Shown piece by piece: positions 10,301 to 42,000 of a stretch of 64,000 nucleotides of DNA (position 1 is its first letter; every line of letters starts with the position of its first letter). The DNA lies in NCBI GenBank assembly GCA_020348445.1, contig CP070751.1, positions 343,772 to 407,771 on the forward strand. The letters run 5' to 3'. Below the pieces are notes generated by a model, which ran no database searches, had not been told where the DNA came from, and saw only the letters and a program-made list of their open reading frames with translations. Both the position numbers and the translations under genes were made by a program. This DNA comes from Thermoplasmata archaeon. Its GTDB lineage: Archaea; Thermoplasmatota; Thermoplasmata; GCA-020350865.

Positions 10301-13300
10301 ATACACTGGGAAAGAAAATGATAATAGAGAATTATGGTGATGCATTAACAGATGTTACTGTGTGGGTCAGCGACGAGTTGAAGGGTAAGGTCAAGTTCTC
10401 ACCCAGGATACATCACGCTTATCTTGGAGTTACAGGATTTATTTCTTTCGTGATCGACCCTGTATTGTCCTTGGATTTTGCGGGGATAAACGGTACATTG
10501 TATGTCCAGGGATACAACAAGATCGTGAATCTCTCCATCAATTTCACACTGCCTCCCGGATCCGATATTTATCTAGGTGATGCTGATTATACTATCTATA
10601 GTTACACAAATAGCAAATATTGTACAAACACTGTTGTTTGGGATACTCCCTCCGAAACACCCGCCGAAGCAAAAAAACGTAAGGGCCCCTTTGAGGCCAT
10701 AATCACGAGAACAACTGGACAGGTTCTCATCAATGGGCAGCCCGTGGTAATTGATCAAGAGGTTTATAAGGACGATGTTATCAAAACTGGGGATGATGGA
10801 GAGGTTGAGCTTGCATTCCCAGACGATGATATCTTGGAATTAGGACCAAATCTAAGTGTGAAACCCAGTGATTTACTCAAAGAAAATGACGATGATTGGT
10901 ATGAAAGGTTGGAATTGGAATTAAAAGAGATATTTAAGAAGTTACCATCTGATCATGATTTTGAAATACGTGCACCTGCAGCTGTTAGCAGCCGAAGGGG
11001 ATCTACCTTAAGACCGAATGTCGCCTCCTACTTTCCCAACTATGGCTCCGACAATTTAAAGTATGCCAGTTATGCCCTTGCAGACGATGTTCATCATACA
11101 GTTTGGCATTATCGTGCAAATGGAATTAACCAGATATATTACCTGAGATGGACAGGTGAGGAGCAGGTAGATGCCAGCCTTAAAAATCTTTCCAATTCCA
11201 CTGAAAACTCATCATGGCCAATGGTCGAGGTATCTGGGGATAAGGTTTACGCAGTCTGGGTCGAAAACGTATCCGGCGACAACGAGATTTATTTTGCAAG
11301 GAGCCTGGATAATGGGACGAACTGGGAGGACCCAATGCCATTAACGAGTGCCGCAGGAGATGTGGACGATCCTGTAATCGCTATAAATTCAAGTGGTACG
11401 ATTCATGTTGTCTGGAAGGACTTCAGGTTCGGTGACAGCCAAATATTTTACATCAATAGCACTGATAATGGAACAACCTGGAGTGCTGTGCAGAATTTAA
11501 CTGAAGCATCGGGAAATTCGGAGTATCCCTCCATCTTAATGGATTCAAATGATGCCATCCACCTCCTCTGGGAGGACTTTCGAAACGGATATGGCCAGAT
11601 ATTTTATATGAACAGTACAAATGGGGGAATAAACTGGAGCAGCCAGCAGGTCATCTCAACTGGATCTGTGGATGCTGGTGAGCCATGTTTTGTAATCGAT
11701 TCCAAGGATGGCATTCATGTAGTATGGCGCGATTCCAGGCACGGGGAAAGCGAAGTGTACTACAGAAATAGCACGGATGGTGGAATCACCTGGGGCATGG
11801 AATTCAGATTGACGAATGATACATCGTATTCTGAGTATCCGGCTATTCTTGATGGTCTGAACGACACCTTCCGTGTTGCCTGGCATGATAATCGGACAGG
11901 AGATAATCTGCTTTATTACTTGGACGGCAAAGGTGGAAACATCTGGGGAGAGATGAGGCGAATTCCGCGAAGAGACCCAAATGTGGAGGATGTCTTTTTA
12001 GTGATAACCTTCGAACTCCAAGATGAGGAAAGCAAATACAGAAAACACGATGTCTATGTGTCTGTAAATGGTTATGAAGTTGCCGCCCTAATAGATACTG
12101 TTCCAAACGGAAGTTATATCTTCGAGGTGGACCCATCCTATGTTAATTACGGCGACGGGGAAGTTGTATTAAACGAGATCAACATAAGAACAGAGAGATT
12201 GGGATACGGTCACTATATCGTCTCAGCAAACAAGGCGCTGATATTCCACTTAAGCTATGTGGATATCCCTGTTGTGGCCATGAACCAAAGCCACGCAGAT
12301 TCCATTGTAAAGAACCTGAACAAAGGTATTTGGCAGGGTGTCGACCCCGCTGTATATGTCAATGACCTAGAGCTCAACACCACCACAATTCCCACCGAAG
12401 GCGATAATATCACCATAAATGCAACCATAAGAAACATGGGCGAGGATGATGTAACTGACGTACAGGTTCAGTTCTTTGATGGAGATCCAAGTTCTAGTGG
12501 CATCCAAATCGGTTCAGATATAATAATCCCAATAATTACCTCCTATGGTATGGAAACCGTCAACATGAGTTGGACCACAGTTGGAGGAACCCATAGGGTA
12601 TTTGTTGTGGTGGATGGCAGCGACTCCATAGTTGAAATCAATCCCATGAACAACATCGCATTCATAACTATATTCACGTTCTCTTCAATTCCACCAGCTG
12701 GCTCCATCATTATAAATGACGATGATCAGTATACAAATAACCTTGATATAATATTGGCTCTATCGGCTGCTGGCGCGAATCCTGTTGTCGAGATGGCATT
12801 ATCTAATGATAACAGTTCATGGTCTGACTGGGAGGAATACATTGAATCGAGGACATGGATCTTGACACCTGGTGACGGTAACAAAACAGTCTATGTTAAA
12901 TACAGGGATTTAGCCTCTCTTGTTTCGCTGATTTATTCAGATAATATAACACTGGATGTTACCCCACCCACAGGTTCAATCTTGATCAACAACGACGATA
13001 CTTATACAAATTCCACCTCAGTCACCCTCACTCTCACAGCCACAGACATCACAAGCGGAATTTACCAGATGGCGTTCTCTGACGATAACTCTACTTGGTC
13101 ACTTTGGGAATCTTATGCACCAACAAAATTGTGGATAATACCAATAGGCGATGGAAATAAGACTGTATATGTTAAATTCTTGGACAATGCCACTGTGACA
13201 TCCTTAGTCTATCACGATGTCATAATCCTGGACAGCACCCCGCCCACAGGTTCGATTGCCATCAATGGTGGTGCACAATACACGAACTCAGCATCTGTTA

Positions 13301-15684
13301 CCCTCACCCTGAACGCAACAGACACGCTTTCTGGTGTCTTTGAGATGGCATTCTCCAACGACAACTCTACATGGACATCCTTAGAAGCTTATTCCACATC
13401 AAAAACCTGGACCCTAACCACAGGGGACGAGAATAAGACTGTCTACGTTAAATTCAGGGACAACATGCAGATGGAATCAGAGGCCTTTTCATCCTGGATA
13501 ATTTTTGACACCGCTGTGCCAACTGGAACCATTACAATTGAAAACGGAGCCGAGTACATCAGTTCAACTGATGTAGTGCTAACACTCTCATCATTTGATG
13601 CAACAAGTGGTATTTCCCAGATGGCATTCTCCCACGACAGCATAACATGGTATCCCTGGGAAAGTTACGCGCCAACAAGGAATTGGATCCTAATATCAGG
13701 CGATGGGATCAAGACTGTGTACATTAGATTCATGGACAACTCATCCTTGGTTTCGGCAGAGTATTCGGACACGATAACCCTGGATACAACCCCGCCTATG
13801 GGCTCGATTTCGATTAACTACGATGATGGGTATGCAACCTCCACCGATACCACCCTCACCATATCTGCTGCCGACATGACAAGCGGCATGTTCCAGATGT
13901 CGTTCTCAAACGACAACACGACGTGGACTGCCTGGGAGAATTATGCCACAACAAAGATATGGATTTTAACAACTGATGATGGATTAAAGACCGTTTATGC
14001 AAGATTCATGGATAACGCACAATTGGTCTCGATGGTGTATTTGGATGATATCATTTTAGATACAACATCACCATCTGTTTCGAGCTTCTCACCCGAGGGT
14101 TCCGAAATCGAGGAGGATGTCACAATAACGATAACATTTAGCGAGGCCATGGACAAATCCTCTGTTGAGAAGGCATTCTCCATAAGACCAAAAGTCGATG
14201 GCATTTTTACTTGGGAAAATAATTATACGCTGACTTTCACCCCATCATCTGCTCTTGCTTATGGTCAGAGTTATAGCGTTTCAATTGGAGTTGGAGCAAC
14301 AGACCTTGCCGGATTGGCTCTTGGAAGAGCGGCAACTACATCTTTCACAATTATTCCAGATACCGACGGTGACGGCATTCCCGATAACGATGATTCTGAT
14401 GATGACAATGACGGAATTCCCGATGACTGGGAGGACGATAACGGCCTGGACAGATTAAATCCAAACGACGCCTCTGAGGATCCGGATTCAGATGGTCTTA
14501 CTAATCTCCAGGAGTTCCTAAACGAAACCGATCCCAATGATCCTGATACAGATGACGATGGAGTAGTGGACGGAGATGACCCCTATCCAACAGACTCATC
14601 GAGGGGGAAGGAGGAGGAACCAACCAATGATATATACATTTATATTATTTTGATCATAATAATAGTAGTGGTGATAGTTGTGCTTCTTTTATTCTTGAAA
14701 GCAAGAGGTCCCAAACCAGAAGAGGAAATCAGTGAATATACACCTCCTTCGGAACCTGAACCGCCTTCTGCTCCCATACCGCCTCAACCTCCATACACAC
14801 CTCCAACATATCCGCCTCCAACACAGCCTCCTACGCAGCCTCCAACTCAGCCCCCTCCTGCACAACCACCTGTTCAACCACCGCCAACTGCACAACCCCA
14901 GGTTCAAGCCCCTGTGCAACCAAGACCCCCTGTATACCCACAAGCTCAAACACCCCCGGTTCCAATATTTCGTCCACAACCAATGGCCCGACAGCCTCAA
15001 GTTCAACCACGACCTCCTGTCCAACAACCAGTTCAACGGCCTCCAGTTCGACCTTATCAGGCCCCACCAATGGCCCAACGACCTCCAGTTCAAGCAAGAC
15101 CACTTGTCCAACAACCAGTTCAACGGCCACCAGTTCGGCCTTATCAGGCCCCACCAATGGCCCGACAACCTCCAGTTCAAGCAAGACCACTTGTCCAACA
15201 ACCAGTTCAACGACCACCAGTTCGGCCTTATCAGGCTCCACCAGTGACTCAACGACCTTCAGTTCAACCACAACCCCCGGTCCAACCACAAGTTCAACGA
15301 CCACCAGTTCGACCTTATCAGGCCCCACCAATGGTCCAACGACCTCCTGTACACCAACCAATTCAACGACCCCCGGTTCAAACAAGACCACCTGCTCAAC
15401 CACAAGTTCAACGACCACCAGTTCGACCTTATCGGGCCCCACCGATGGCCCAACGACCTCCAGTTCAAGCAAGGCCCCCTGTACAACCACAAGTTCAACG
15501 ACCCCCAGTTCAAGCAAGACCTCCAACACAGCAACCCGTCCAACAGCCTCCAGTTCAAGCAACTCCTCCTACACAACCACCTGCTTCCCAGCCTCCAGCA
15601 GGACCAACTGATCAAAAGCCCCCAACAGAACCTGCTGAAAAGCCCCTCAAGAAAAAGCCGCCTGAATCAGAAACGCAAGAATGA
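7342..15684 (+). CDS. 2780-aa surface protein: 5 PPC-like repeats, FecR-like domain, Asp-box repeats, CARDB, 5 Ig-like repeats, SbsA-type Ig, Ca-binding DxDxDG repeats, TM, Pro/Gln-rich cytoplasmic tail
   Basis: Five DxYEPD...HxF...DxDW repeats. Four SxDxGxxW Asp-boxes. Five PPxGSIxIN...MAFSxDN.TW...KTVY repeats. DTDGDGIPD motifs. TM IYIYIILIIIIVVVIVVLLLFL. Confidence 0.85.
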   Translation: MMKNDNRNSGLGLHMFSVLVILVMVFNVTIVMMTFMGDNVSAVDIYEPDNSSGQASSIPTDGTVQSHDFDPAGDEDWMVFSATVDMMYTIETFNLGDADTVMYLYDTDGVTELGFDDDGGDELWASKIEWIAPRSDNFYIMVYEYDGYGGSTYTYDINVIESTPPVGDTYEPDGTQAEASTITTDGTMQNHTFHIDDDVDWIIFSATDGTTYTIETHNLIDADTFIVLVDSNGITSLAMDDNSGVGLASKIEWTFSRDDNYYVVVVENYGNSGPTYSYDINIIISGVSQGDAYEPDNTPGEASTITVDGTKQNHTFHIPGDEDWVRFSATSGNLYTIETHNLNHTDTVIYLYDTDGVTILELDDDAGEELASKIQWIATNTANFYVRIMDINGEGNENYSYEFNITETIPPPGDAYEPDNIYTDSSSIPTDGTNQSHTFHIQGDEDWITFSAQAGNIYIIATHNLTDADTVIYLYDTDGVTVLEADDDGGAGFASEIQWLAPRSDDFYIRVVEYSDKGGLTFSYDINVTETIPPSGDTYEPDDTAGEASLLTTDGTVQSHTFHVPGDEDWIVFSITPGTIYTIETSDLGPSCDTRIYLYTSDGTTLIEFDDDSGSDLASRIIWNSSGYPAGNYYISVLEFQEGFGDDYSYNISIVEGALKTYEFGIIITPSWQSTSVGSQVQFNIEVYNDGPITDSFELDVMGFDPKWMELSKDHVTLVPGEEEDITLTIDVPVTANPGSYDFKVEIYSVHNNFSKSASVTLDVSMDPIITNLYPRNGTVTGSQDILFSWSTTIESSTQVFLKKASDSTYTQYVGQKGTSHSLTVTGLDRNTWYDFYVVSTSDYGSSTSAVRSFLITNAIVFSERSYDFTVERDYNQLRTISVVNTDSIPYKLLVTVENPDDDLIAGFVGNGSQDKIVTLDPGESMDLTLAIHAQDTLSLDYQLVVNLSSIPTNGSDEIVYDFANVNVHIAHVDANFTVTEILIYPYTLGKKMIIENYGDALTDVTVWVSDELKGKVKFSPRIHHAYLGVTGFISFVIDPVLSLDFAGINGTLYVQGYNKIVNLSINFTLPPGSDIYLGDADYTIYSYTNSKYCTNTVVWDTPSETPAEAKKRKGPFEAIITRTTGQVLINGQPVVIDQEVYKDDVIKTGDDGEVELAFPDDDILELGPNLSVKPSDLLKENDDDWYERLELELKEIFKKLPSDHDFEIRAPAAVSSRRGSTLRPNVASYFPNYGSDNLKYASYALADDVHHTVWHYRANGINQIYYLRWTGEEQVDASLKNLSNSTENSSWPMVEVSGDKVYAVWVENVSGDNEIYFARSLDNGTNWEDPMPLTSAAGDVDDPVIAINSSGTIHVVWKDFRFGDSQIFYINSTDNGTTWSAVQNLTEASGNSEYPSILMDSNDAIHLLWEDFRNGYGQIFYMNSTNGGINWSSQQVISTGSVDAGEPCFVIDSKDGIHVVWRDSRHGESEVYYRNSTDGGITWGMEFRLTNDTSYSEYPAILDGLNDTFRVAWHDNRTGDNLLYYLDGKGGNIWGEMRRIPRRDPNVEDVFLVITFELQDEESKYRKHDVYVSVNGYEVAALIDTVPNGSYIFEVDPSYVNYGDGEVVLNEINIRTERLGYGHYIVSANKALIFHLSYVDIPVVAMNQSHADSIVKNLNKGIWQGVDPAVYVNDLELNTTTIPTEGDNITINATIRNMGEDDVTDVQVQFFDGDPSSSGIQIGSDIIIPIITSYGMETVNMSWTTVGGTHRVFVVVDGSDSIVEINPMNNIAFITIFTFSSIPPAGSIIINDDDQYTNNLDIILALSAAGANPVVEMALSNDNSSWSDWEEYIESRTWILTPGDGNKTVYVKYRDLASLVSLIYSDNITLDVTPPTGSILINNDDTYTNSTSVTLTLTATDITSGIYQMAFSDDNSTWSLWESYAPTKLWIIPIGDGNKTVYVKFLDNATVTSLVYHDVIILDSTPPTGSIAINGGAQYTNSASVTLTLNATDTLSGVFEMAFSNDNSTWTSLEAYSTSKTWTLTTGDENKTVYVKFRDNMQMESEAFSSWIIFDTAVPTGTITIENGAEYISSTDVVLTLSSFDATSGISQMAFSHDSITWYPWESYAPTRNWILISGDGIKTVYIRFMDNSSLVSAEYSDTITLDTTPPMGSISINYDDGYATSTDTTLTISAADMTSGMFQMSFSNDNTTWTAWENYATTKIWILTTDDGLKTVYARFMDNAQLVSMVYLDDIILDTTSPSVSSFSPEGSEIEEDVTITITFSEAMDKSSVEKAFSIRPKVDGIFTWENNYTLTFTPSSALAYGQSYSVSIGVGATDLAGLALGRAATTSFTIIPDTDGDGIPDNDDSDDDNDGIPDDWEDDNGLDRLNPNDASEDPDSDGLTNLQEFLNETDPNDPDTDDDGVVDGDDPYPTDSSRGKEEEPTNDIYIYIILIIIIVVVIVVLLLFLKARGPKPEEEISEYTPPSEPEPPSAPIPPQPPYTPPTYPPPTQPPTQPPTQPPPAQPPVQPPPTAQPQVQAPVQPRPPVYPQAQTPPVPIFRPQPMARQPQVQPRPPVQQPVQRPPVRPYQAPPMAQRPPVQARPLVQQPVQRPPVRPYQAPPMARQPPVQARPLVQQPVQRPPVRPYQAPPVTQRPSVQPQPPVQPQVQRPPVRPYQAPPMVQRPPVHQPIQRPPVQTRPPAQPQVQRPPVRPYRAPPMAQRPPVQARPPVQPQVQRPPVQARPPTQQPVQQPPVQATPPTQPPASQPPAGPTDQKPPTEPAEKPLKKKPPESETQE
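15031..15500 (+). repeat. Coding tandem repeat, ~87-bp unit (QRPPVRPYQAPPMAQRPPVQARPLVQQPV), about 5 copies
   Basis: gttcaacggc(c/t)ccagttcg(a/g)ccttatcaggc recurs at 15031, 15118, 15205 and further, less regularly spaced, copies. Confidence 0.9.
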
Positions 15685-24928: not shown

Positions 24929-25001
24929 GGGCCGGTAGATCAGTTGGAAGATCGCAGGCTTTGCAAGCCTGAGGCCACGGGTTCAAATCCCGTCCGGTCC
25001 A
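24929..25001 (+). tRNA. tRNA-Ala (anticodon TGC), 73 nt, CCA not encoded
   Basis: Cloverleaf GGGCCGG/CCGGTCC with G3:U70 and discriminator A. D-stem GATC/GATC. Anticodon arm CAGGC-TTTGCAA-GCCTG. T-arm ACGGG-TTCAAAT-CCCGT. Confidence 0.97.
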
Positions 25002-25197
25002 CTCTAATTTTTATATAATTGTATCTGTGGACCGGACTTTATGTTCGAGTTATAATTGAACATCAATTAGGTCTTAAGCTCGAACATCCCGTCCGGTCCA
25101 CTTTAATTTTTAAATAATTATATCCGTGGACCGGACTCGTGTTTGAGTTATAATTGAATTTAAATTGTTTCTTAAGCTCAAACACCCATCCGGTCCA
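24989..25197 (+). repeat. Two ~98-nt tandem units plus a partial third, each starting with the tRNA-Ala 3' end and containing two hairpins
   Basis: CCCGTCCGGTCCAC at 24989 and 25088, CCCATCCGGTCCA at 25185. Inverted copy GTGGACCGGAC at 25027 and 25126. Confidence 0.9.
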
Positions 25198-25279: not shown

Positions 25280-26221
25280 TTGGATGAAATCAGATCTGCA
25301 ATGGAGAAATTTGGAGTACCTGGCAGAGACCTATACGACCTGCCCACTTCGGATAAAAGTTTTCCGGATGGAGCAAATTACAGAATGGAGATATCAGGAG
25401 TTGAAAGGCTCAGCACCCTAGAAGCTCTGGTGGACGAGATGGAGAAGCGCAACATGCCAATCCACAGGCTCATTTCCACGGTAATGGGCTGCACTCTGCT
25501 TACAGATGATGAGCTTGAGAACTTTGCAAAGCTGGCTGCCGAAAAGAAGGTGGAAGTTATAATTACACCGGGGCCTAGAAGCTCCTGGGATACGGGACGC
25601 CAGCTTTTTACACCAGAAGGAGCCATATCAGGCCTTCGGGTAAGAGGCTCGGATAATCTATCCTACCTGATAGCGGATATAAAGAGGGCAGCCGATTTCG
25701 GCTTCAGAGGCTTTTTAGTGACAGACGAAGGAGCCTTGTGGCTGCTTTCAAAGCTCAGGGAAGAAGGCGTGATTCCAAAGGACGTAGTGTTCAAGGTGTC
25801 AATATTTGCAGGCCACGCCAATGCGGCAGGAGGCAAGGTACTGGAAAGCCTGGGTGCCAACACATTCAACCCTCTGGGAGACCTGAGCCTACCCATGTTC
25901 GCATCTATAAGATCCGCCATCGACATACCAATTGACATCCATATATACCTGTCAGACTCATTTGGGGGATTTAACAGGTTCTGGGAGGCACCCGAACTTG
26001 CAAGGATTGCTTCGCCCTGCTACTTCAAAATCGAGCCAGGCACGGCCTTGGCAGCAGGTGGAGGAATTTACAAGCCCTGGACTGACGAGGGCTTTTTAGC
26101 CAAGTTCGCAAGGGAGAAGGTGAAGCACGCCGAGATCATAAAGGGCATAATAGACAAATACCAGCCGAACCTGAAGCTCTCTGCATTAGGACCAAGTGAC
26201 CTGGCCATTCCAAAACCTTGA
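25280..26221 (+). CDS. Conserved TIM-barrel-like protein of unknown function (often labelled U32 peptidase-like)
   Basis: Resembles the LPTSxKxFPDGxxYRxE family from memory. TTG start after GGGGGGA. First gene of the aldolase-Fae operon. Confidence 0.65.
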   Translation: MDEIRSAMEKFGVPGRDLYDLPTSDKSFPDGANYRMEISGVERLSTLEALVDEMEKRNMPIHRLISTVMGCTLLTDDELENFAKLAAEKKVEVIITPGPRSSWDTGRQLFTPEGAISGLRVRGSDNLSYLIADIKRAADFGFRGFLVTDEGALWLLSKLREEGVIPKDVVFKVSIFAGHANAAGGKVLESLGANTFNPLGDLSLPMFASIRSAIDIPIDIHIYLSDSFGGFNRFWEAPELARIASPCYFKIEPGTALAAGGGIYKPWTDEGFLAKFAREKVKHAEIIKGIIDKYQPNLKLSALGPSDLAIPKP

Positions 26222-26259
26222 TTTCTCCTTCTTTTCAATATTTGTTAGGAGGCTATATT

Positions 26260-27690
26260 ATGTCGGAGTTCAAACTCGAAGGAGTATTTCCAGCGTTAAT
26301 AACACCGTTTAAGAAGGACGAGAGCATAGACGAGGAGGCATTCCGCTCGCTAATTTCGTATGTGATGCCACATGTAAATGGAATAGTTCCCTGCGGGACA
26401 ACAGGGGAGTTCGTCTATCTTGATTTTGAGGAGAGAAAGAGACTGATAGACATAGCAGTAGAGGAGATTAAAGACGGCAGGTACGTTGTCGCCGGAACAG
26501 GGGCATGTTCCACTAAACACGCAATAGAGCTTACCAAGTATGCAAAGGATGCAGGTGCAGATGCCAGTCTTGTTGTGAGTCCCTATTACCTAAATCCTGC
26601 GGACAAAGGCCATTACGAGCACTTCTATCAGATAGCCAAGAACACGGATTTTCCAATTATAATGTACAACATACCCCAATGTACAGGCTCTTTCTTGCCG
26701 AGAAGGGTTATAGAGGACCTCGCAAATATAGACAACATCGTGGGTCTGAAGGACTCCTCAGGAAACTTGACCTTCACATTGGAGGTACTAGAGAAGGTGA
26801 GAGACAAGATCAACGTAGTGATAGGGCACGACGAGGTTGTTCTTCCTGCATTGGCTGCAGGTTGCAAGGGTATGATATTGGCCTCGGCGCAGGTGTTTCC
26901 AGATGTCTGGCAGGAATTATTTTCAGCTGTTAAAGAGGGTAATCTCGAGAGGGCGCAGGAGCTTCAGATGAAGGTGCAGAAGCTTGCACGGATATTCTGT
27001 AGGTACGGTGGTGCAGTCCCAGTGAAAGCTGCTTTACGCATGATGGGATTAAAGATGGGAAGAACAAGAAAACCCATAAGAGAAGGCGGAGTGATCATTC
27101 ACGAGGACAGGGAGGAGATCAGGGTTGAGCTTGAGAAATTAGGAAAAATAGAATCCGCACCTTTCGAGTTTAGTGTACCAGATATCCCCATTAAATCCAG
27201 ATTCGAGGATGTTGGTATTGCAAAGGAGGACATTCAAGGATCAGGTCTTCTCTTAGGAACCGCATCTTCTGGAGAGGGAAAAGAGCAGGTTCATGTTGAT
27301 CTGGTCATGGGAGAAAAAAGCAGTCCCCTTGGGAAAGCCTTTGCAGTTCAGCTCACGCATCCAAGACATGGTCACGAGGCACTGACAACCATCTTAGAAC
27401 CCAATCTAACTGTGAGGCCTTCTACACTTATTGTGCCGGGTATTGAACTTAAGAACCTAAGGCAGGCGAACATGATATATGGACCAACGCAAAGCGCGGT
27501 GGCGAAGGTCATCGTTGATAACATCGAGCAGGGTACAATTACAAATGAAATGGTCAAAAACTACCTCATGATAATAAAAATCCATGTTCCCCCAAATGCA
27601 CTGGATAGACAATTGCTATATGAAAACAATTACCAGGCTGTAGATTCGGCATTAAAAAAAGCATTATCTGGCTCTTCGGGGGGTGATTGA
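26260..27690 (+). CDS. DapA/NAL-family class I aldolase fused to a C-terminal Fae (formaldehyde-activating enzyme) domain, paralog 1
   Basis: GTTGE, MYNIPQCTG, GLKDSSG (Schiff-base Lys). Fae-like VHVDL...LEPNLTVRPSTLIVP...IYGPTQSAVAK...NNYQA. ATG 26260 follows AGGAGG. Confidence 0.88.
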   Translation: MSEFKLEGVFPALITPFKKDESIDEEAFRSLISYVMPHVNGIVPCGTTGEFVYLDFEERKRLIDIAVEEIKDGRYVVAGTGACSTKHAIELTKYAKDAGADASLVVSPYYLNPADKGHYEHFYQIAKNTDFPIIMYNIPQCTGSFLPRRVIEDLANIDNIVGLKDSSGNLTFTLEVLEKVRDKINVVIGHDEVVLPALAAGCKGMILASAQVFPDVWQELFSAVKEGNLERAQELQMKVQKLARIFCRYGGAVPVKAALRMMGLKMGRTRKPIREGGVIIHEDREEIRVELEKLGKIESAPFEFSVPDIPIKSRFEDVGIAKEDIQGSGLLLGTASSGEGKEQVHVDLVMGEKSSPLGKAFAVQLTHPRHGHEALTTILEPNLTVRPSTLIVPGIELKNLRQANMIYGPTQSAVAKVIVDNIEQGTITNEMVKNYLMIIKIHVPPNALDRQLLYENNYQAVDSALKKALSGSSGGD

Positions 27691-27692
27691 TA

Positions 27693-29168
27693 ATGCCCAA
27701 AACAGAATGGTTTAGGGGAGTGTTTCCTGCAATGGTCACACCCTACAACAGGGACGAGGAAATAAATGATGAGGCCTTCAGAAGCCTGATTGCTCACCTC
27801 CTACCCAATGTGAACGGCATAGTCCCCTGCGGCACAACTGGGGAGTTCATGTACCTTTCTGAAAAGGAAAAGATGCACATTATCGATTTGGCTGTAGATG
27901 AAGTAAAAGGGAAGGTGCCAGTTATCGCGGGAACAGGCTGCCCAAGCACGAAACATACCAAAGAGCTCACACAGTACGCAAAGGATGCAGGTGCTAAAGC
28001 TGCGTTGGTTGTCTCACCCTTTTATCTCAAGCCCTCCTTCAAGGAGCTTTATGAGCACTACGACACCCTAAACTCCTTGGACTTCCCCATCATCCTCTAC
28101 AATATTCCTCAGTGTACTGGGATTCATAAAAAATGGTGGACTGCAGAAGGCCTTGCTCAGTTGGAGAATGTGATTGGAATAAAGGACTCCTCAGGCGATC
28201 TGGCCTTCATGATGGCCCTTTTCGAGAAGATCAAAGGAAAAATCTCGATATTCTGCGGCCACGACGAAATTGCAATGCCTGCATTGGCAGCGGGTGCCGA
28301 CGGTTTGATTCTGGCAAGCGCCAATCTGATTCCAGATATCTGGCAGAAAATATTCAAGGCTGTGAATGAACGCGATTTGGCAGAGGCTCAAAAGCTCCAG
28401 GCCGAAATCCAAAAGCTGGTTAGAATTGTGGTGAGAAACGGTGCAACCCAGGCTGTAAAAGAGGGTCTTAATATGATGGGCCTTTCTATGGGCAACTCAA
28501 GACGTCCTATCATGCCTGGAGGACCTTTCAGAAGAGAGGATAGAGAGGAGCTGAGAATACAGCTTGAGAACCTTGGTAAGATTCAGAAGAAGACAGTGGA
28601 GTTCGAGGTCAGTAAGGGGAATGTGATCACCTCAGATTACCCTGCAGTATCGTACACACCATCTCGCATATCTGATTTCACAATGAAGGTTGGAGAGGGC
28701 TTCGCAGGACCACCTGTCTATGAATTGGCTCATATAGACCTGCTTATCGGAGTAAAAGATGGACCCGTTGGAGCTGCTTTAGAGGAGGCATTGGAAAGGG
28801 AGAAGAAAGAAGGGACAGATACTCTGAGGATCATAAACGACAAACCAAAAACACTTTTGGTTCCCACAGTGACGGTTCGAACAAAAAAGCAGGCTGCGCA
28901 CATCTACGAACATGCAACAAAAGGAGTCAATCTAGCAATAGAGAAGAGTATAAAGGACGGGGTGCTGCCCGAGGCTATCCTGGACGATATCTGCATGATC
29001 GCAAATGTATTTGTTCATCCAGCAGCTGCAAACAGACACAGAATCATGTTCAACAACTACAAGGCCATGCTTCATGCAACAAAAAAGGCCTTGGAAGAAA
29101 GACCCACTATAGATGAGCTACTAAATGAGAAGGAGTGCGCAAGGCATCCCTTCAAATACACGCCTTAG
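27693..29168 (+). CDS. DapA/NAL-family aldolase-Fae fusion, paralog 2
   Basis: GTTGE, LYNIPQCTG, GIKDSSG. Fae-like VGEGF...AHIDLLIG..GPVG...VFVHPAA...NNYKA...RPTIDELL...ARHPF. ATG 27693 follows GGGGTGA. Confidence 0.88.
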   Translation: MPKTEWFRGVFPAMVTPYNRDEEINDEAFRSLIAHLLPNVNGIVPCGTTGEFMYLSEKEKMHIIDLAVDEVKGKVPVIAGTGCPSTKHTKELTQYAKDAGAKAALVVSPFYLKPSFKELYEHYDTLNSLDFPIILYNIPQCTGIHKKWWTAEGLAQLENVIGIKDSSGDLAFMMALFEKIKGKISIFCGHDEIAMPALAAGADGLILASANLIPDIWQKIFKAVNERDLAEAQKLQAEIQKLVRIVVRNGATQAVKEGLNMMGLSMGNSRRPIMPGGPFRREDREELRIQLENLGKIQKKTVEFEVSKGNVITSDYPAVSYTPSRISDFTMKVGEGFAGPPVYELAHIDLLIGVKDGPVGAALEEALEREKKEGTDTLRIINDKPKTLLVPTVTVRTKKQAAHIYEHATKGVNLAIEKSIKDGVLPEAILDDICMIANVFVHPAAANRHRIMFNNYKAMLHATKKALEERPTIDELLNEKECARHPFKYTP

Positions 29169-29252: not shown

Positions 29253-32243
29253 TTGAGGGACATAGATTTCATTAAGGTGGGCTCATTAAAAATGATTTTC
29301 TCTATCACGATTACATTAACTTTGGTTTTACAGGTTTGCTTTTTAAGTTTTTCATGGGAAGTTGCCCTTGGTGAAGGCCCTTCTCCTGATCCTCTGGACG
29401 TCGATCCAACCACCCTCCAGGAGATAATCAACAAGGTTACAGAGCAGGATGTGGAGAAGTACATCACAGATTTACAAAATTTTGGTACAAGATACTTTAG
29501 AACGACCCAATGCAATCTTTCTGCGCAGTACATATATGATGAATTCAGCAATTATTCAGCACTGAGCGTCGAGAGTGATTATTTCTGGTATGACGGTGTG
29601 CTTGTGAGAAATATCATAGCAACCCTTCCTGGATTAAATGAGACAAATCCCAAGATCTATGTTATAGGAGGCCACTACGATTCTGCTACACTGTCTGATC
29701 CATTGAACAATGCACCGGGTGCAGATGATGACGCCAGTGGAACTGCAGTTGCCCTGGAAGCTGCAAAGATACTCAGCCAGTACAGGTTCGACGCCACAAT
29801 AATATTTGCTACCTGGACCGCCGAGGAAGCCGGCCTTGTGGGAAGCGCACGCTGGGCACAAAATGCCGTAGATAACAACATGGACATAGACGCTTACCTC
29901 AATTTCGATATGATAGGTTACGATCCAGACAATAAAATGGGACTTGACATAGGCTACAATTCTGAATCGATATGGATTGCAGATGAGATGGAGACAATCA
30001 ATACAGATTACAGCATCGGACTCAATATTACGACACGTCCAGGAGGGGTAAGAAGTGACCATGCCTCATTTTGGGCCCAGGGATATCATGCTGTGGAGTG
30101 CATAGAATCTGAGTTCAATACTGATAATTATCATACAATCAACGATACAGTGGACAAGCTCAACATGGAATTCGACAAGAAGGTCACACAGCTTGGAATC
30201 GCAACATTGGCAAAACTTGCTGGTCTTCTGACACCTGGTGTGGGTGCAATATATTTGGATTCCACTGCCTACCAACCTGTGGATACAGTGGAAATCAAAC
30301 TCTATGATACAGACCTGAATTCTAATCCCGGTTTGACCGAGCAGGCCATTGTGGAAATCTCAAGCGACACCGAGACATCCCCTGAACCTGTACTCTTGAC
30401 GGAAACAGGCTCCAACACCAGTGTTTTTATGGGAACGATAAACGTTGATACAGGTATTCCTGCCTCAGACGGGATATTACAGGTTTCCGAGGGCGATATT
30501 ATAACTGCAGTATACAATGATGTAGATCCTGCGGGAACAAGAACGGACAAAGCGGAAATTGATGGTATTCCCCCTGTAATCAGCAATGTTGTTGCGACAC
30601 CTGATGTCACCTCGGCAATCATTACCTGGACAACAGATGAACCCAGCGATTCAAGGGTATATTTTGGTATATCATCAACACTCTTTTTGGAAGTGTACGA
30701 TTCTAAAATGGTGACCTCACATTCCATAGAACTTACTGGATTGGAACCCTCCCTTTTGTATTATTATGATGTTGAATCTAAAGATGTGGCAGGTAATATT
30801 AGAAGAGATGACAACTCAAGCGTACATTACAATTTTAAAACCTTGCTTGGATTCTCGATCTCAGCAAATGGGGGTTATGTTGGTTACGTTAAAGAAAGCC
30901 AACCGACTCTCAACTATTTCGATGGTCCAGACATCCTCGTGGGGCACGGGGCCCAGGGAATATACCATGGTGCAGCGCAGTTCAATGTCTCCTGGTTTCC
31001 AAAAGACGCAACCATCACATATGCAACTGTGCAGTTTTATGGCAGTAGGTGGCATTACACTGGATCTGGAGGTAGCTGGTATCTGCGGTTGCTGAACAGC
31101 AGTGTGGATTTAGACTGGCAATCTCTTGGTTATACTGATATCCACAATGCCCAGGCAGAAGATACCATATCACCCACTATGCAGGATGGCGATTTAAAGA
31201 GGAAGCAATGGAACACATTCACGTTTGCCAGCGGACAGTATGAGGCACTGAAAAATCGAATCTTGAACCAAACGATTTCGTTTAGGCTCGACGGTCCGCA
31301 ATCAGGATATTACTTGTTCATTTGGGATACTGGAAATGGGGACGAGAGTTATGGCCCCGAGTATGCGCCTCGTATAACGATACGCTATGATACCGTGGGT
31401 GATACCGATGGACCGGTATTAGCTGATTTACAAGTTACACCAAGTCCCACCTACGGTGTGATTGAGGTGAACCTTTCTGCAGTGATCTCAGATGCTGGGT
31501 ACGGCGGTTCGAACATAACAGAAGCCAGGTATTATGATCCCATCCAAAAATCATGGATAAAAATGGATCCAAAGGACGGCTCTTTTGATTCGTCAACCGA
31601 AAATTTGGAAAAAACAATAGATATATACTCATGGCCTGACGGCACCTATGAAATATTTATTAGAGGATTGGATGAGGCAGGTAATTGGGGAAGCCCAGTT
31701 TCGGTAGTGCTTGAAAAGAAACAGACCTTTGATCTTCAGCTGCAGTACGGCTGGAACCTGATTTCCATTGCCCTAATTCCTTCAGATACGTCGCTTTTAA
31801 AGGTCCTGGAATCCATAGTCGATGATTACGATATTGTGCAGTATTACAGTGCATCTGATTTTGCAGACCATTGGAAACACAACCAAGTTTCAAAACCATC
31901 CCATCTAAATGATCTAGGATTCCTGGATAGCACAATGGGATTCTGGGTGCACATCACAAATCCAAGTGGAGCTCTGCTCCAATGCTCAGGCTCTCCATTT
32001 ACTGAAGACCAGATGGTCACCCTACACCGTGGCTGGAATCTTGTGGGTTATCCTTCTACAGGGAATATGAACAGAACAGAGGGACTGAACATTTTGACTT
32101 TCCCAGATAATGTGAACGCGATCTGGACCTACGATGCATCCAGTCAGAGATGGGAGAGTATGGGCCCTGATGATGATTTTGAGGTGGGCAAGGGTTATTA
32201 TGTCCATTCCAAGGATGATGTTATTTGGGAAGTGCCGCTATAA
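29253..32243 (+). CDS. Secreted M28-family Zn aminopeptidase with FN3-like domain and GWNL-type C-terminal module
   Basis: GGHYDS, GADDDASG, AEEAGLVGS, NFDMIGY, SDHASF, YHTINDT. WTTDEPSDS FN3-like domain. C-terminal GWNLIS...GWNLVGYPS module. Confidence 0.88.
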   Translation: MRDIDFIKVGSLKMIFSITITLTLVLQVCFLSFSWEVALGEGPSPDPLDVDPTTLQEIINKVTEQDVEKYITDLQNFGTRYFRTTQCNLSAQYIYDEFSNYSALSVESDYFWYDGVLVRNIIATLPGLNETNPKIYVIGGHYDSATLSDPLNNAPGADDDASGTAVALEAAKILSQYRFDATIIFATWTAEEAGLVGSARWAQNAVDNNMDIDAYLNFDMIGYDPDNKMGLDIGYNSESIWIADEMETINTDYSIGLNITTRPGGVRSDHASFWAQGYHAVECIESEFNTDNYHTINDTVDKLNMEFDKKVTQLGIATLAKLAGLLTPGVGAIYLDSTAYQPVDTVEIKLYDTDLNSNPGLTEQAIVEISSDTETSPEPVLLTETGSNTSVFMGTINVDTGIPASDGILQVSEGDIITAVYNDVDPAGTRTDKAEIDGIPPVISNVVATPDVTSAIITWTTDEPSDSRVYFGISSTLFLEVYDSKMVTSHSIELTGLEPSLLYYYDVESKDVAGNIRRDDNSSVHYNFKTLLGFSISANGGYVGYVKESQPTLNYFDGPDILVGHGAQGIYHGAAQFNVSWFPKDATITYATVQFYGSRWHYTGSGGSWYLRLLNSSVDLDWQSLGYTDIHNAQAEDTISPTMQDGDLKRKQWNTFTFASGQYEALKNRILNQTISFRLDGPQSGYYLFIWDTGNGDESYGPEYAPRITIRYDTVGDTDGPVLADLQVTPSPTYGVIEVNLSAVISDAGYGGSNITEARYYDPIQKSWIKMDPKDGSFDSSTENLEKTIDIYSWPDGTYEIFIRGLDEAGNWGSPVSVVLEKKQTFDLQLQYGWNLISIALIPSDTSLLKVLESIVDDYDIVQYYSASDFADHWKHNQVSKPSHLNDLGFLDSTMGFWVHITNPSGALLQCSGSPFTEDQMVTLHRGWNLVGYPSTGNMNRTEGLNILTFPDNVNAIWTYDASSQRWESMGPDDDFEVGKGYYVHSKDDVIWEVPL

Positions 32244-37230: not shown

Positions 37231-38055
37231 ATGAAAGCCATCATAATCTGCAAGCCAGACATCGCGTCCTGCAACATATTCGAGAATCTAAAATCATTAA
37301 GAAATTGGAAGGAGGAAGGTGAATTTCAGGGCAATCCCCTCCTTTTTTACGACGATTTTCTCATGGCCACCATAAATGATGAGCATATTTTCCATGACAA
37401 TGTCGATATCGAGCTTGGGAAGGTACTAAAACAAAAACCAGAGTGCATTATCTACGCATCCAGACATAGAAGCGAATCAGGGAAAAGGAGCCTTACTGTC
37501 CACCCCATTGGCAACTTCGGAAAGGCTGAATTCGGTGGAAAGGAGAAGACATTAATTCCCTCCTCCCCCCATCTGATGACCGAGGCATTGCGGATACTTA
37601 GAAAAAAAGCCAAGGACCTGGACTTCTCAGTATCTTTCGAAGCCACTCATCACGGACCTTTTCTTTCAACTCCAACATTCTTTATTGAAATCGGAAGTGA
37701 CGAGGAGACATGGCGCTATAAAGGAGCGGGAAGGGCCATTGCAGAGACTATTTTAGAGACCCAAACCAGGGAATATGAGGTTGGCATCGGAATAGGGGGA
37801 GGCCACTATTCCCCGCGAATGACAGATGTCGCAATAGAAAGGAAAATATCCTTTGGTCATATCGTACCCACCTATGCCCTCTCGAATCTGACCCCAGATA
37901 TGGCCAGGCAAGTGATATCTCAAACGCAAGATGTCAAGAAGGTGCACTTCCACAAAAAACATTTAAAAGGTGAGGAATACAGGAAGTGGAAGGAGTTCTT
38001 TTTGAAAATCGGAATCACTCCCGTTAAAAGTGCGGATTTGGAATTGCTAAAGTAA
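37231..38055 (+). CDS. dtdA: Archaeal D-aminoacyl-tRNA deacylase
   Basis: ASRHRS, SLTVHPIGN, EATHHGP, FIEIGS, GGGHYSP, FGHI. Confidence 0.92.
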   Translation: MKAIIICKPDIASCNIFENLKSLRNWKEEGEFQGNPLLFYDDFLMATINDEHIFHDNVDIELGKVLKQKPECIIYASRHRSESGKRSLTVHPIGNFGKAEFGGKEKTLIPSSPHLMTEALRILRKKAKDLDFSVSFEATHHGPFLSTPTFFIEIGSDEETWRYKGAGRAIAETILETQTREYEVGIGIGGGHYSPRMTDVAIERKISFGHIVPTYALSNLTPDMARQVISQTQDVKKVHFHKKHLKGEEYRKWKEFFLKIGITPVKSADLELLK

Positions 38056-39023: not shown

Positions 39024-42000
39024 TTAATCAATGGTGCCTGAAGTTCCGCAATGCGGGCACTCAATCATCCGGGGTCCCGCCATTACCTCGACCATAAATG
39101 ATCTGCCGCAGGAGGGGCATTCTATCTCTTCTTGATCCACCTTGGGTTTTCCTTCATGTCTATCCGATACTTCCTCTTGCTCCTTTGTCTTGATCACTAT
39201 CGTTCCTACCTCAGGTGATGCCTCGCGTTCCTTTCTTTGTGCAGGCGCCCTTTGTGTCACTTTTTGAAATCCCAAATATGCTTCCTCATCACCCAGGACA
39301 GCAGGGGGTTTTCTTTGGGTGATAAACATGAAGATTATCCCGAAAACGATCAGGGCGGTTATTAAAATCCACCACCACCAAAATGGTTCCAAAGACCTTG
39401 ATTTATCAAGAGGATAGTAATCTTTACTGTCGGCGACACCATCGCCATCATCATCCCAATCTGCATTGTTGCCGATTCCATCAGAATCTGTATCCTCCCA
39501 CTCGTTGGGATCGTCAGGGAATTTGTCCTTATTATTTGAATTTAATACACCGTCACCGTCTCTGTCATCGTCTTGGTTGTCCCCCAGCCCATCAGAGTCG
39601 GAATCCCGCCATTCTGAGTTATCAAACGGAAATACATCACGTGAATCAGTTGTTCCGTCGTTGTCGTCATCTGAATCAGTATTGTCGCCGAAGCCATCTG
39701 AATCAGTGTCCCTCCATTCGAGGGCATCATTTGGGAATCTATCATATGTGTTTGCCACCCCATCCCCGTCCTTATCGTAATCTGTTTTATCTCCTATGCC
39801 ATCACCATCCAGATCAGAGGTTTCGCTTGCGTTGTACGGGAATGCATCGTTTGTGTTGAATACACCGTCCCCATCCGCATCCATATCCGAGTTGTCGCCA
39901 ATGCCATCGGAATCGGAATCAGAATATTCATCTGGATTCAGTGGGAATGCATCAGAAAAGTCCATTATGCCGTCACCATCATCATCCAGATCATCATTGT
40001 TACCCTGGCCGTCGGAATCAGAATCCATCCATTCATCATCATCCAATGGAAATTCATCATTTATGTCATATACTCCGTCACCATCGTCATCTAAATCCGC
40101 GTTATTACCAAGACCGTCGGAATCGGTATCCACCCATTCATTTGGATTGGCGGGAAAATCATCCTGTAAATCAGAGACTGCATCGTTGTCATCATCCAAA
40201 TCCATGTTGTCACCTATGCCGTCGCCATCATTGTCTTCCCATTCAGTGTTATCGTAAGGGAATGGATCATCTGGATTGTCCACACCATCGTTGTCTATGT
40301 CGGGATCTGCAAGATCGCCTATTCCATCGGAGTCAAAATCTGTGTTGTCCACGATAACTACAATGGAACCTTGTGCCACATGGCCTGCCAGATCAATTGC
40401 CCTGAACGTTAGTGTATGGCTTCCGTCAGTTTGGAATGTGGTGTCCCAAACAGTGTTATTATCAACCCAGCCCAGGCCATCCACACTGTACTCCACAGAA
40501 TCAATGAATAAATCAAAACCCCTGATGTCCATAACAACATTTCCTTTGACGTAATCCCCACTATGAGGCGAGATTATCGTCAATTGCGGCTGCGTGTTGT
40601 CGATGTTAAATGAAAAAGGTACAGTGGTCTGGGTATGGCTGGGTATTATGTCTTCGCAAGTTGCATATAGGTCATACGTACCGTCTGCGAAAGTAGTTGT
40701 ACCCATTAAAACTTCCCACAAGCCACTTACGCTGTTGTAACCTGTTGCATAATCGTTGCCAGATATCGTTATATACACGTTCGAGACTCCGATACCATCT
40801 GAAGCCGAAATCCCGAAAGTGTAGGTGCCCTGGAGGTACTCGTTGGCCACAGGTGATACGATAGATACAACAGGATAGTCGTTGTCCACTGTTATTGTAA
40901 CACTTTCTGTGACCACATGTCCTATATCGTCGTAAGCTCTGAATGTTATTGTGTAAACACCATATGATCGCGTTGTCGAATCCCATGTTCCAGTCCAACC
41001 CAAGATCTCAGAGCCTGAAAGCGCAGACCAGGCTCCGCTGTCTATTCGGAACTGAACCGTGGGAACAAAGATCCCGGAATCTGTGGAGTTCGCCTCCAAA
41101 GCCACGCTGGGCCCGTATAAAATCTGACTGTTTATTGGCGAGATGACAGACAGTGTGGGGGCGTTGTTGTCTATATAGAAATTGAACGAAATCGTAGTCT
41201 GGGTGTGAATTGGAATACCATCTTTTACTGTTGCGCTTAGGCCGTAAGTTCCATCCGTAATTGCCGTGGTATCTATTGTCACCTCCCATAAAAGGCTTGC
41301 GCTGTTGTACCCCATGACATAGTTGTCGGTATGTATCTGGATGTGCACCTCGGAAACATCCACATCATCAGAAGCCGATACCTTGAAGGTGTACGTACCC
41401 TGGACATATTCATTGGCCACTGGGGACACAACAGAGGCAGCAGGATCGTCGTTGTCCACTGTTACTGTGAGGCTGTCTGTGACCACATGACCGATTTCAT
41501 CGTAGGCTCTGACGGTTATTGTGTGGACACCGTTGGAGTACGCAGTGGAATCCCAGGAAGCAGGAAGTGTAATCCAATTACCACTGTCTATTCTGAACTG
41601 AACAATTAAAACAAAGTCTCCTTCATCTGTGGAATCCACATCCACAACCACATTCTCTCCGTACACAGTTTCCCCTTGCTGCGGTGAATTTATTGAAAGT
41701 GTTGGCTCGTTGTTGTCTATATAGAAATTGACAGAATCAGTAGTCTGAGTGTGACTCGAAATTCCATCCTTTGCAGTTGCAGTGATACTATATACACCAT
41801 CGAAAATCGTGGCGGTGTCCAATTCCATTTCCCACAAACCAGAAACACTGTTGTAACTTGTATTATAATCGTCGCCGTTTATGGTGATAGTGACATTTGT
41901 TATACCCACTTTATCAGAAGCCAGAATTTTGAAGGTGTAAACACCCTGAACAAATTCATTTTTAACAGGCGCAGAAATAGAAACAGTGGGATTATCATTG

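Follow-up and report, generated by a model that had tools for sequence, protein, structure and literature searches.

The window analysed here is a 64,000-nucleotide stretch of contig CP070751.1 (assembly GCA_020348445.1) from a Thermoplasmata archaeon, covering positions 343,772 to 407,771 of the forward strand; all positions below are those of the window unless stated otherwise. Its range 25280-29168 holds three co-directional open reading frames (ORFs), at 25280-26221, 26218-27690 and 27687-29168 (Table 1). The second and third code for proteins, hereafter called A and B, that are 46% identical over their full length and join an aldolase domain to a Fae domain. The first codes for another conserved protein, which we call X. 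The range had been presented as two tandem aldolase-Fae fusions in the initial annotation of this DNA; this description holds for the second and third ORFs, and the first, left unmentioned there, is not a fusion. Translation of A likely begins at ATG 26260, preceded at 8 nt by GGAGG, and that of B at ATG 27693, 2 nt past the stop codon of A. Based on the analyses reported below, we propose, with belief and doubt in about equal parts, that A and B together make up a heteromeric 2-oxo-acid hydroxymethyltransferase that depends on methylene-tetrahydrofolate and is analogous to PanB.

Table 1. Features of the window, with those of the A/B locus listed first (aa, amino acids)
Feature	Position	Strand	Remarks
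Gene X	25280..26221	+	313 aa TIM-barrel protein, conserved; putative partner of the A/B pair
Subunit A, aldolase-Fae fusion	ORF open from TTG 26218; likely gene 26260..27690	+
A, aldolase domain	~26275-27084	+	Schiff-base Lys178 codon at 26749-26751
A, Fae domain	~27256-27672	+
Subunit B, aldolase-Fae fusion	ORF open from 27687; likely gene 27693..29168	+
B, aldolase domain	~27711-28559	+	Lys166 codon at 28182-28184
B, Fae domain	~28689-29153	+	His349 codon at 28731-28733
M28-family peptidase	29253..32243	+	996 aa, long extracellular-type C-terminal region; Pfam Peptidase_M28, E 1e-35
D-aminoacyl-tRNA deacylase gene	37231-38055
tRNA-Ala(TGC)	24929-25002
Degenerate copies of the tRNA 5' end	24709, 24780, 24852		three copies, ~72 nt spacing, on the 5' side of the tRNA
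Repeats opening with the tRNA 3' end	24987, 25086, 25185		two of ~98 nt; the copy at 25185 is weaker
Giant ORF	7342-15684	+	2780 aa
Giant ORF	39024-50828	-	3934 aa

Both A and B match the Pfam DHDPS profile (PF00701) over nearly its whole length, with E-values of 3e-74 and 1e-78, respectively, and both harbour the GTTGE and YNIPQCTG motifs and the lysine of KDSSG. Their other domains match the Pfam Fae profile (PF08714; A, E 4e-40, 137.9 bits; B, E 1e-36, 126.8 bits; cut-off 27) and the NCBIfam one_C_fae model (TIGR03126; 141.3 and 144.8 bits; cut-off 118.05). The NCBIfam model of the Fae-Hps fusion (NF009833) was matched over its Fae part only (residues 2-161 of 392), with a score below its cut-off. 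Thus, profiles and motifs confirm that both ORFs code for a complete DHDPS/NAL-type aldolase joined to Fae, as first annotated. The fusion had also been regarded as uncharacterized, and our literature search found no paper on Fae joined to DapA/DHDPS or on such fusions. The best 120 database matches listed are all full-length two-domain fusions, 62-87% identical, and those that bear a name are labelled just dapA or fae.

The dapA label stems from scores that marginally exceed the equivalog cut-off of the NCBIfam dapA model (TIGR00674; 234.0 bits for A and 212.7 for B, cut-off 206.15). Taken at face value, these scores would make A and B true 4-hydroxy-tetrahydrodipicolinate synthases of lysine biosynthesis, with Fae as a passenger, and A and B are indeed the sole DHDPS-family matches, as well as the sole Fae matches, in the whole genome. 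Nevertheless, NanA-type models score both proteins nearly as high. In an alignment with a solved DHDPS (3pud), YNIPQCTG stands opposite YNVPGRTG, so that the position of Arg138, the residue by which DHDPS binds aspartate semialdehyde, is occupied by Cys in both A and B. This replacement, noted early on as an argument against lysine synthesis, extends to the family: none of the 22 A and 22 B orthologues deviates at GTTGE, at the counterpart of the Schiff-base Lys161 or at that of Tyr133 (which belongs to a triad with Thr44 and Tyr107 in DapA), and the Arg138 position holds Val, Cys or Thr in A and Cys, Thr or Val in B, with Arg in none of the 44. Moreover, DapB (PF05173) has no match in the genome, a single contig of 5.16 Mb with a CheckM completeness of 81.7%, and was matched in 11 of 14 control genomes. 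The lack of a DapB match makes lysine synthesis by the diaminopimelate route unlikely in this organism and the DapA label wrong. A role as a true DapA is thus very improbable.

We aligned the Fae domains of 24 A and 24 B proteins with five canonical Fae proteins and three domains from fusions that occur as single copies. Four motifs are common to the canonical Fae proteins and the single-copy fusions, namely GEAL..AHIDL, PNLxxKP, FGPAQ and a C-terminal KHPF. In the A family, the PNL loop is retained as PNLtvRP (PNLxxRP), together with GPTQ; the C-terminal HPF tail is missing, and the His is not conserved. The B family keeps GEG..AHxDL, with invariant His and Asp, and RHPF; a deletion replaces its PNL loop, and GPxQ is missing. 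Neither chain therefore holds all four Fae motifs. The residues that contact the carrier in Fae are presumably His22 and Asp24, which we assigned here by motif conservation. The aldolase domains hint, less strongly, at a second asymmetry between A and B in their sequences. The equivalent of DHDPS Tyr107, a residue that crosses the dimer interface, is Tyr in 22/22 B orthologues and in 6/22 A orthologues, including the A protein of the window, and Phe in the other 16 A orthologues.

The Fae domain of A (residues 330-490) was then modelled with that of B (residues 320-493). The pair gave an ipSAE interface score of 0.80, against 0.00 for the best of three controls; in a benchmark, 58 of 80 solved complexes and 2 of 110 mismatched pairs attained this mark. 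The model runs agreed on at least 82% of contacts, with a partner pLDDT (predicted local distance difference test) of at least 82. In the predicted interface, residues 392-400 of A, corresponding to the PNL loop, face residues 335-339, 351/353, 359-365 and 485-487 of B, i.e. GEG, the AHIDL region and the RHPF tail. According to the model, the motifs kept by A and those kept by B thus come together at a single interface. The score may reflect resemblance to the solved Fae pentamer and is to be read as compatibility of the two domains, not as binding. As distinct orthologous subunits with complementary Fae motifs, A and B probably form one heteromer.

One might suppose instead that the proteins are aldolases or dehydratases acting on some other substrate, and that their Fae domains serve as oligomerization or ligand-sensing modules without formaldehyde chemistry. 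Each Fae domain taken alone is degenerate relative to canonical Fae, most hosts lack tetrahydromethanopterin (H4MPT), the sole carrier known for Fae, the DHDPS family has non-aldolase members such as KdgD, and plain DHDPS-family genes accompany distant relatives of X. However, across domains of life each paralogue strictly retains what its counterpart has lost, including the invariant His and Asp of B, and the meeting of these motifs at one modelled interface fits a conserved functional pocket rather than decay. We therefore consider a non-chemical role of the Fae domains improbable.

A phylogenetic survey of the fusion, as suggested at the outset, located A/B pairs in Thermoplasmata, Bathyarchaeia and Chloroflexota, and single copies in Theionarchaea and Methanofastidiosia. 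In all loci with two copies, the A orthogroup comes first and the B orthogroup second, and the starts of A and B are tightly coupled. Three Chloroflexi loci (L005, L007 and L008) have genes for an EcoRV-type restriction enzyme, a D12 methyltransferase and a PhdYeFM antitoxin between A and B; the pair thus tolerates a separation of ~3 kb. In an evenly drawn sample of 201 Anaerolineae species, 52 genomes have Fae matches, exactly two of them in 47 cases. Fae matches were present in 12 of 14 genomes of one order, and the pair was found in just 3 of 251 genomes sampled evenly across all Chloroflexota. The single-copy fusions of Theionarchaea (L115 and L116) and Methanofastidiosia (L064) harbour all four Fae motifs and score equally against A and against B, and their host genomes also carry Fae-Hps and Mch. 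They look like an unduplicated, possibly H4MPT-using, ancestral form.

The initial annotation had assumed H4MPT to be the one-carbon carrier, which was not borne out in this organism. Mch, Ftr and beta-ribofuranosylaminobenzene 5'-phosphate (beta-RFAP) synthase have no match in its genome, and identical searches were positive in control archaea. The folate one-carbon set is present, with FolD, formate-tetrahydrofolate ligase (FTHFS, E 4e-261) and serine hydroxymethyltransferase (SHMT). Taken together, the three absences and the three presences indicate that the carrier in this organism is tetrahydrofolate rather than H4MPT. Similarly, 17 of 18 genomes bearing the A/B pair lack Mch. H4MPT is the only known carrier of Fae, and single-copy fusions as well as one pair-bearing genome co-occur with Mch and Fae-Hps; given the gene content of this genome, we nevertheless regard the use of H4MPT by its A/B pair as hardly credible. 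The best SHMT match (contig positions 5093612-5094862, outside the window) sits in an open frame of 1263 aa, far above the normal length of SHMT, which may be a fusion. In addition, the genome G038 (locus L071), labelled as a Chloroflexota metagenome-assembled genome (MAG), has a strong and, for that group, unexpected Mch match (E 8e-132) and no Fae domain. Close relatives of our genome are labelled as Thermoplasmata or 'Methanomassiliicoccales' MAGs.

A phosphopantothenate synthetase of the archaeal kind (E 2e-72) is encoded in the genome, as is a PanE-like reductase (E 7e-39), and searches for PanB with both the Pfam profile PF02548 and a bacterial PanB query were negative. PanB moves the one-carbon unit of methylene-tetrahydrofolate onto a 2-oxo acid. 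In a first set of 51 genomes, exclusion between the pair and PanB appeared to be perfect (21 with the pair, 10 with PanB and none with both), but it was overturned by the unbiased Anaerolineae sample, in which 14 genomes have both, 38 the pair only, 99 PanB only and 50 neither, a negative association. X without the pair occurs in 12 of these Anaerolineae genomes; nine of the 12 have PanB, which directly adjoins X in at least six. The PanB genes of Anaerolineae and other bacteria (loci L117-L176) fall into a PanE-adjacent and an X-adjacent type. In a quick maximum-likelihood tree of 64 PanB proteins, all 17 X-adjacent copies belong to one clade of 35 (Shimodaira-Hasegawa-like approximate likelihood ratio test support 90), and none of the 22 PanE-adjacent copies do. 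Among 13 genomes examined that have both the pair and PanB, the latter is of the PanE type in 10 and of the X type in two, and one was not placed. Thus, exclusion holds mainly between the pair and the X-linked PanB clade, and X adjoins either the A/B pair or a PanB of its dedicated clade, two neighbours that mostly exclude each other. The PanB beside X may differ in function from the usual pantoate enzyme.

X itself matches no Pfam or NCBIfam model. The U32 profile PF01136 weakly matches 22 of 30 relatives of X (best E 7.7e-8), X not being among them. The AlphaFold2 model of X is a TIM barrel (pLDDT 92.4) that resembles generic proteins of this fold, including CutC, the U32 protein Mk0906, class II aldolases and RuBisCO-like proteins; the U32 structure 5d88 aligns with a Z-score of 14.1, level with many other TIM barrels. 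No conserved cluster of Cys or His was found in the alignment of the family. X may be a distant relative of the U32 family and, given its co-occurrence with the pair in the Anaerolineae sample, is a putative partner of A and B. It is present in at least 569 species genomes, with hosts that include Thermoplasmata, Theionarchaea, Bathyarchaeia, Methanofastidiosia, Chloroflexota, Bipolaricaulota, Fraserbacteria and a Thermotogae MAG, and it is 65% identical between our archaeon and a Chloroflexi bacterium. A replacement of ketopantoate reductase by X was also considered; genes resembling PanE occur in some genomes with X and PanB and are absent from others. ThiF, encoded 5' of the pair in one archaeal locus, was considered and proved unrelated to X.

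In archaea devoid of the pair, X is found in operons with genes for a class I/II aminotransferase, aldehyde:ferredoxin oxidoreductase (AOR) and homoserine dehydrogenase, or it adjoins the threonyl-tRNA synthetase gene. A conserved operon of X, AOR, aminotransferase and homoserine dehydrogenase recurs in loci L017, L019-L021, L027, L035, L038, L056 and L058. These archaeal operons suggest that X acts on a four-carbon acid related to homoserine or aspartate semialdehyde. They would also fit a catabolic trap, in which a 4-hydroxy-2-oxo acid, formed for instance on a route from homoserine to 4-hydroxy-2-oxobutanoate, would be split into pyruvate and formaldehyde, and the latter caught immediately at the Fae site on a tetrahydropterin, which would feed the folate one-carbon pool and keep formaldehyde from being set free. 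The domains and chemistry would be identical to those of the hydroxymethyltransferase that we propose, and in principle the reaction can run either way. In addition, distant relatives of X adjoin plain DHDPS-family aldolase genes in catabolic clusters, and the organism is rich in peptidases. However, no homoserine dehydrogenase homologue was found in this genome with phmmer, archaeal pair loci are surrounded by housekeeping genes and not by genes for transporters or regulators, and the enzyme that replaces the pair beside X belongs to a biosynthetic hydroxymethyltransferase family. This replacement by a PanB clade favours hydroxymethyl transfer onto a 2-oxo acid over catabolic release of formaldehyde, and we regard the catabolic trap as unlikely. 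Release of formaldehyde had been the preferred reaction in the initial annotation. Its general idea, a link between one-carbon metabolism and a 2-oxo acid, still fits the evidence best, and the joining of a carrier-bound one-carbon unit to a 2-oxo acid can be retained; the preferred catabolic direction is disfavoured by the X-adjacent PanB, although the direction is not settled.

The hydroxymethyltransferase that we propose would operate as follows. A and B would be the two subunits of one enzyme, and each class I aldolase domain would bind a 2-oxo acid as an enamine through its Schiff-base lysine. The Fae domains would pair A-to-B to create a composite pocket for the pterin and formaldehyde, with A contributing the PNL-loop side and B the His/Asp side and the HPF tail. 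A one-carbon unit would pass between 5,10-methylene-tetrahydrofolate and the 2-oxo acid, at C3 of the latter, with formaldehyde freed or captured at the Fae site beside the aldolase site. The net reaction would be that of a hydroxymethyltransferase, like PanB but in another fold, and X might cooperate by acting on the substrate or the product. Using a Schiff-base aldolase and a Fae-type site for the reaction of PanB is chemically sensible. Physiologically, the enzyme would most likely yield ketopantoate or a similar 4-hydroxy-2-oxo acid. Of these, ketopantoate ranks first, because the genome needs pantoate and PanB is absent from it. However, the presence of both a PanB-PanE module and an X-linked PanB in many bacteria leaves room for another 4-hydroxy-2-oxo acid, e.g. 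4-hydroxy-2-oxobutanoate on a homoserine-related route. That A/B and X together constitute a new route to ketopantoate or a related 4-hydroxy-2-oxo acid, with formaldehyde drawn from methylene-tetrahydrofolate via a split Fae-type site, is a tentative proposal, which we rate as rather doubtful in this complete form.

Several observations weigh against the hydroxymethyltransferase proposal. To our knowledge, canonical Fae works only with H4MPT and is specific for that carrier, and gene content alone points to the use of tetrahydrofolate by the A/B Fae site. The donor for DHDPS-family enzymes is normally pyruvate. The A protein of the window still has H359 and the Tyr107 equivalent, and its asymmetry with B is thus weaker than in most orthologues. 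In the Anaerolineae sample, the association of X with the pair (X orthologues in 37 of 52 pair-bearing and 12 of 149 other genomes; odds ratio 28, p 4e-18) and the avoidance between the pair and PanB (odds ratio 0.19, p 1.5e-6) were both calculated ignoring kinship. Fourteen of the 52 pair-bearing Anaerolineae also have PanB, two of them of the X-linked clade. Many genomes hold both a PanB-PanE module and an X-linked PanB, and the X module may therefore make something besides pantoate. Lastly, in many Thermoplasmata X accompanies the aminotransferase, AOR and homoserine dehydrogenase in genomes devoid of both PanB and the pair, which means that X does not strictly need such a partner.

As for the other genes of the region, an M28-family peptidase is encoded downstream of B. 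Such genes are also found 3' of B in Chloroflexi loci, and 5' of X in locus L011. In close relatives of our archaeon, the gene that directly follows B codes for D-aminoacyl-tRNA deacylase, which in the window lies further downstream. The link between the M28 peptidase and the A/B pair is uncertain. This peptidase and a nitroreductase were considered as parts of the system and discarded; they recur near the pair in Chloroflexi, and inconsistently in archaea. Upstream of X, a tRNA-Ala(TGC) gene is preceded by degenerate copies of its own 5' end and followed by repeats that open with its 3' end. These repeats resemble tRNA copies in decay or, alternatively, attachment sites that integrated elements have multiplied. 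Two giant ORFs lie on either side of the region, and between them are genes for large secreted-type proteins, namely a beta-propeller protein, a NosD-like beta-helix protein, a BNR protein and the M28 peptidase.

Thousands of database entries label these proteins as DapA or Fae, and both names would lead reconstructions of metabolism in Thermoplasmata, Bathyarchaeia and Anaerolineae astray, the former by implying lysine synthesis and the latter by implying H4MPT-linked formaldehyde metabolism. If our proposal is correct, A/B would fill an apparent gap in genomes that have phosphopantothenate synthetase and a reductase without PanB, and many uncultured archaea and Chloroflexota would owe to it the step of coenzyme A synthesis for which they lack PanB. 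Fae chemistry would be extended from H4MPT to folate, a carrier with which no Fae-type domain would have been shown to work before. The pair would also be a clear natural example of duplicated genes that share one active site formed between their subunits. Finally, an aldolase drawing formaldehyde straight from a folate carrier would be of interest for engineered, synthetic one-carbon assimilation.

Among known systems, the Fae domains of A and B are close to the Fae of Methylorubrum extorquens (PDB 1Y5Y/1Y60), whose solved chain they match with an E-value of 1.6e-19. B keeps its AHIDL His and Asp and its HPF tail, and A keeps its PNL loop and GPxQ. The M. extorquens enzyme is a homopentamer that acts on H4MPT. 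It is a stand-alone protein of ~170 residues, whereas here Fae is fused to an aldolase, its motifs are split over two paralogues and the host is devoid of H4MPT genes. Archaeal Fae-Hps (NF009833) similarly fuses Fae to a C-C bond-forming enzyme that uses formaldehyde, with the same logic of coupling a carrier to an aldol-type reaction. Nevertheless, its partner domain is 3-hexulose-6-phosphate synthase, of the orotidine monophosphate decarboxylase fold, which uses a sugar-phosphate acceptor and is C-terminal to Fae, in contrast with the N-terminal DHDPS-type Schiff-base aldolase for a 2-oxo acid found here, and it is made of one chain rather than two paralogous ones. The DHDPS/NAL family (DapA, NanA, 2-keto-3-deoxygluconate aldolases, YagE/YjhH) shares with A and B the full-length domain, the Schiff-base Lys, GTTGE and Tyr133; A and B differ from it by the lack of Arg138 and of a lysine-pathway context, by their C-terminal Fae domain and by their obligate A/B pairing. 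PanB (PF02548) is a metal-dependent enzyme of the phosphoenolpyruvate mutase/isocitrate lyase type, with no relation to A or B in sequence or fold. The likeness to PanB would be functional: the same net reaction is proposed for the pair, and a PanB clade takes the same position beside X, with a complementary distribution.

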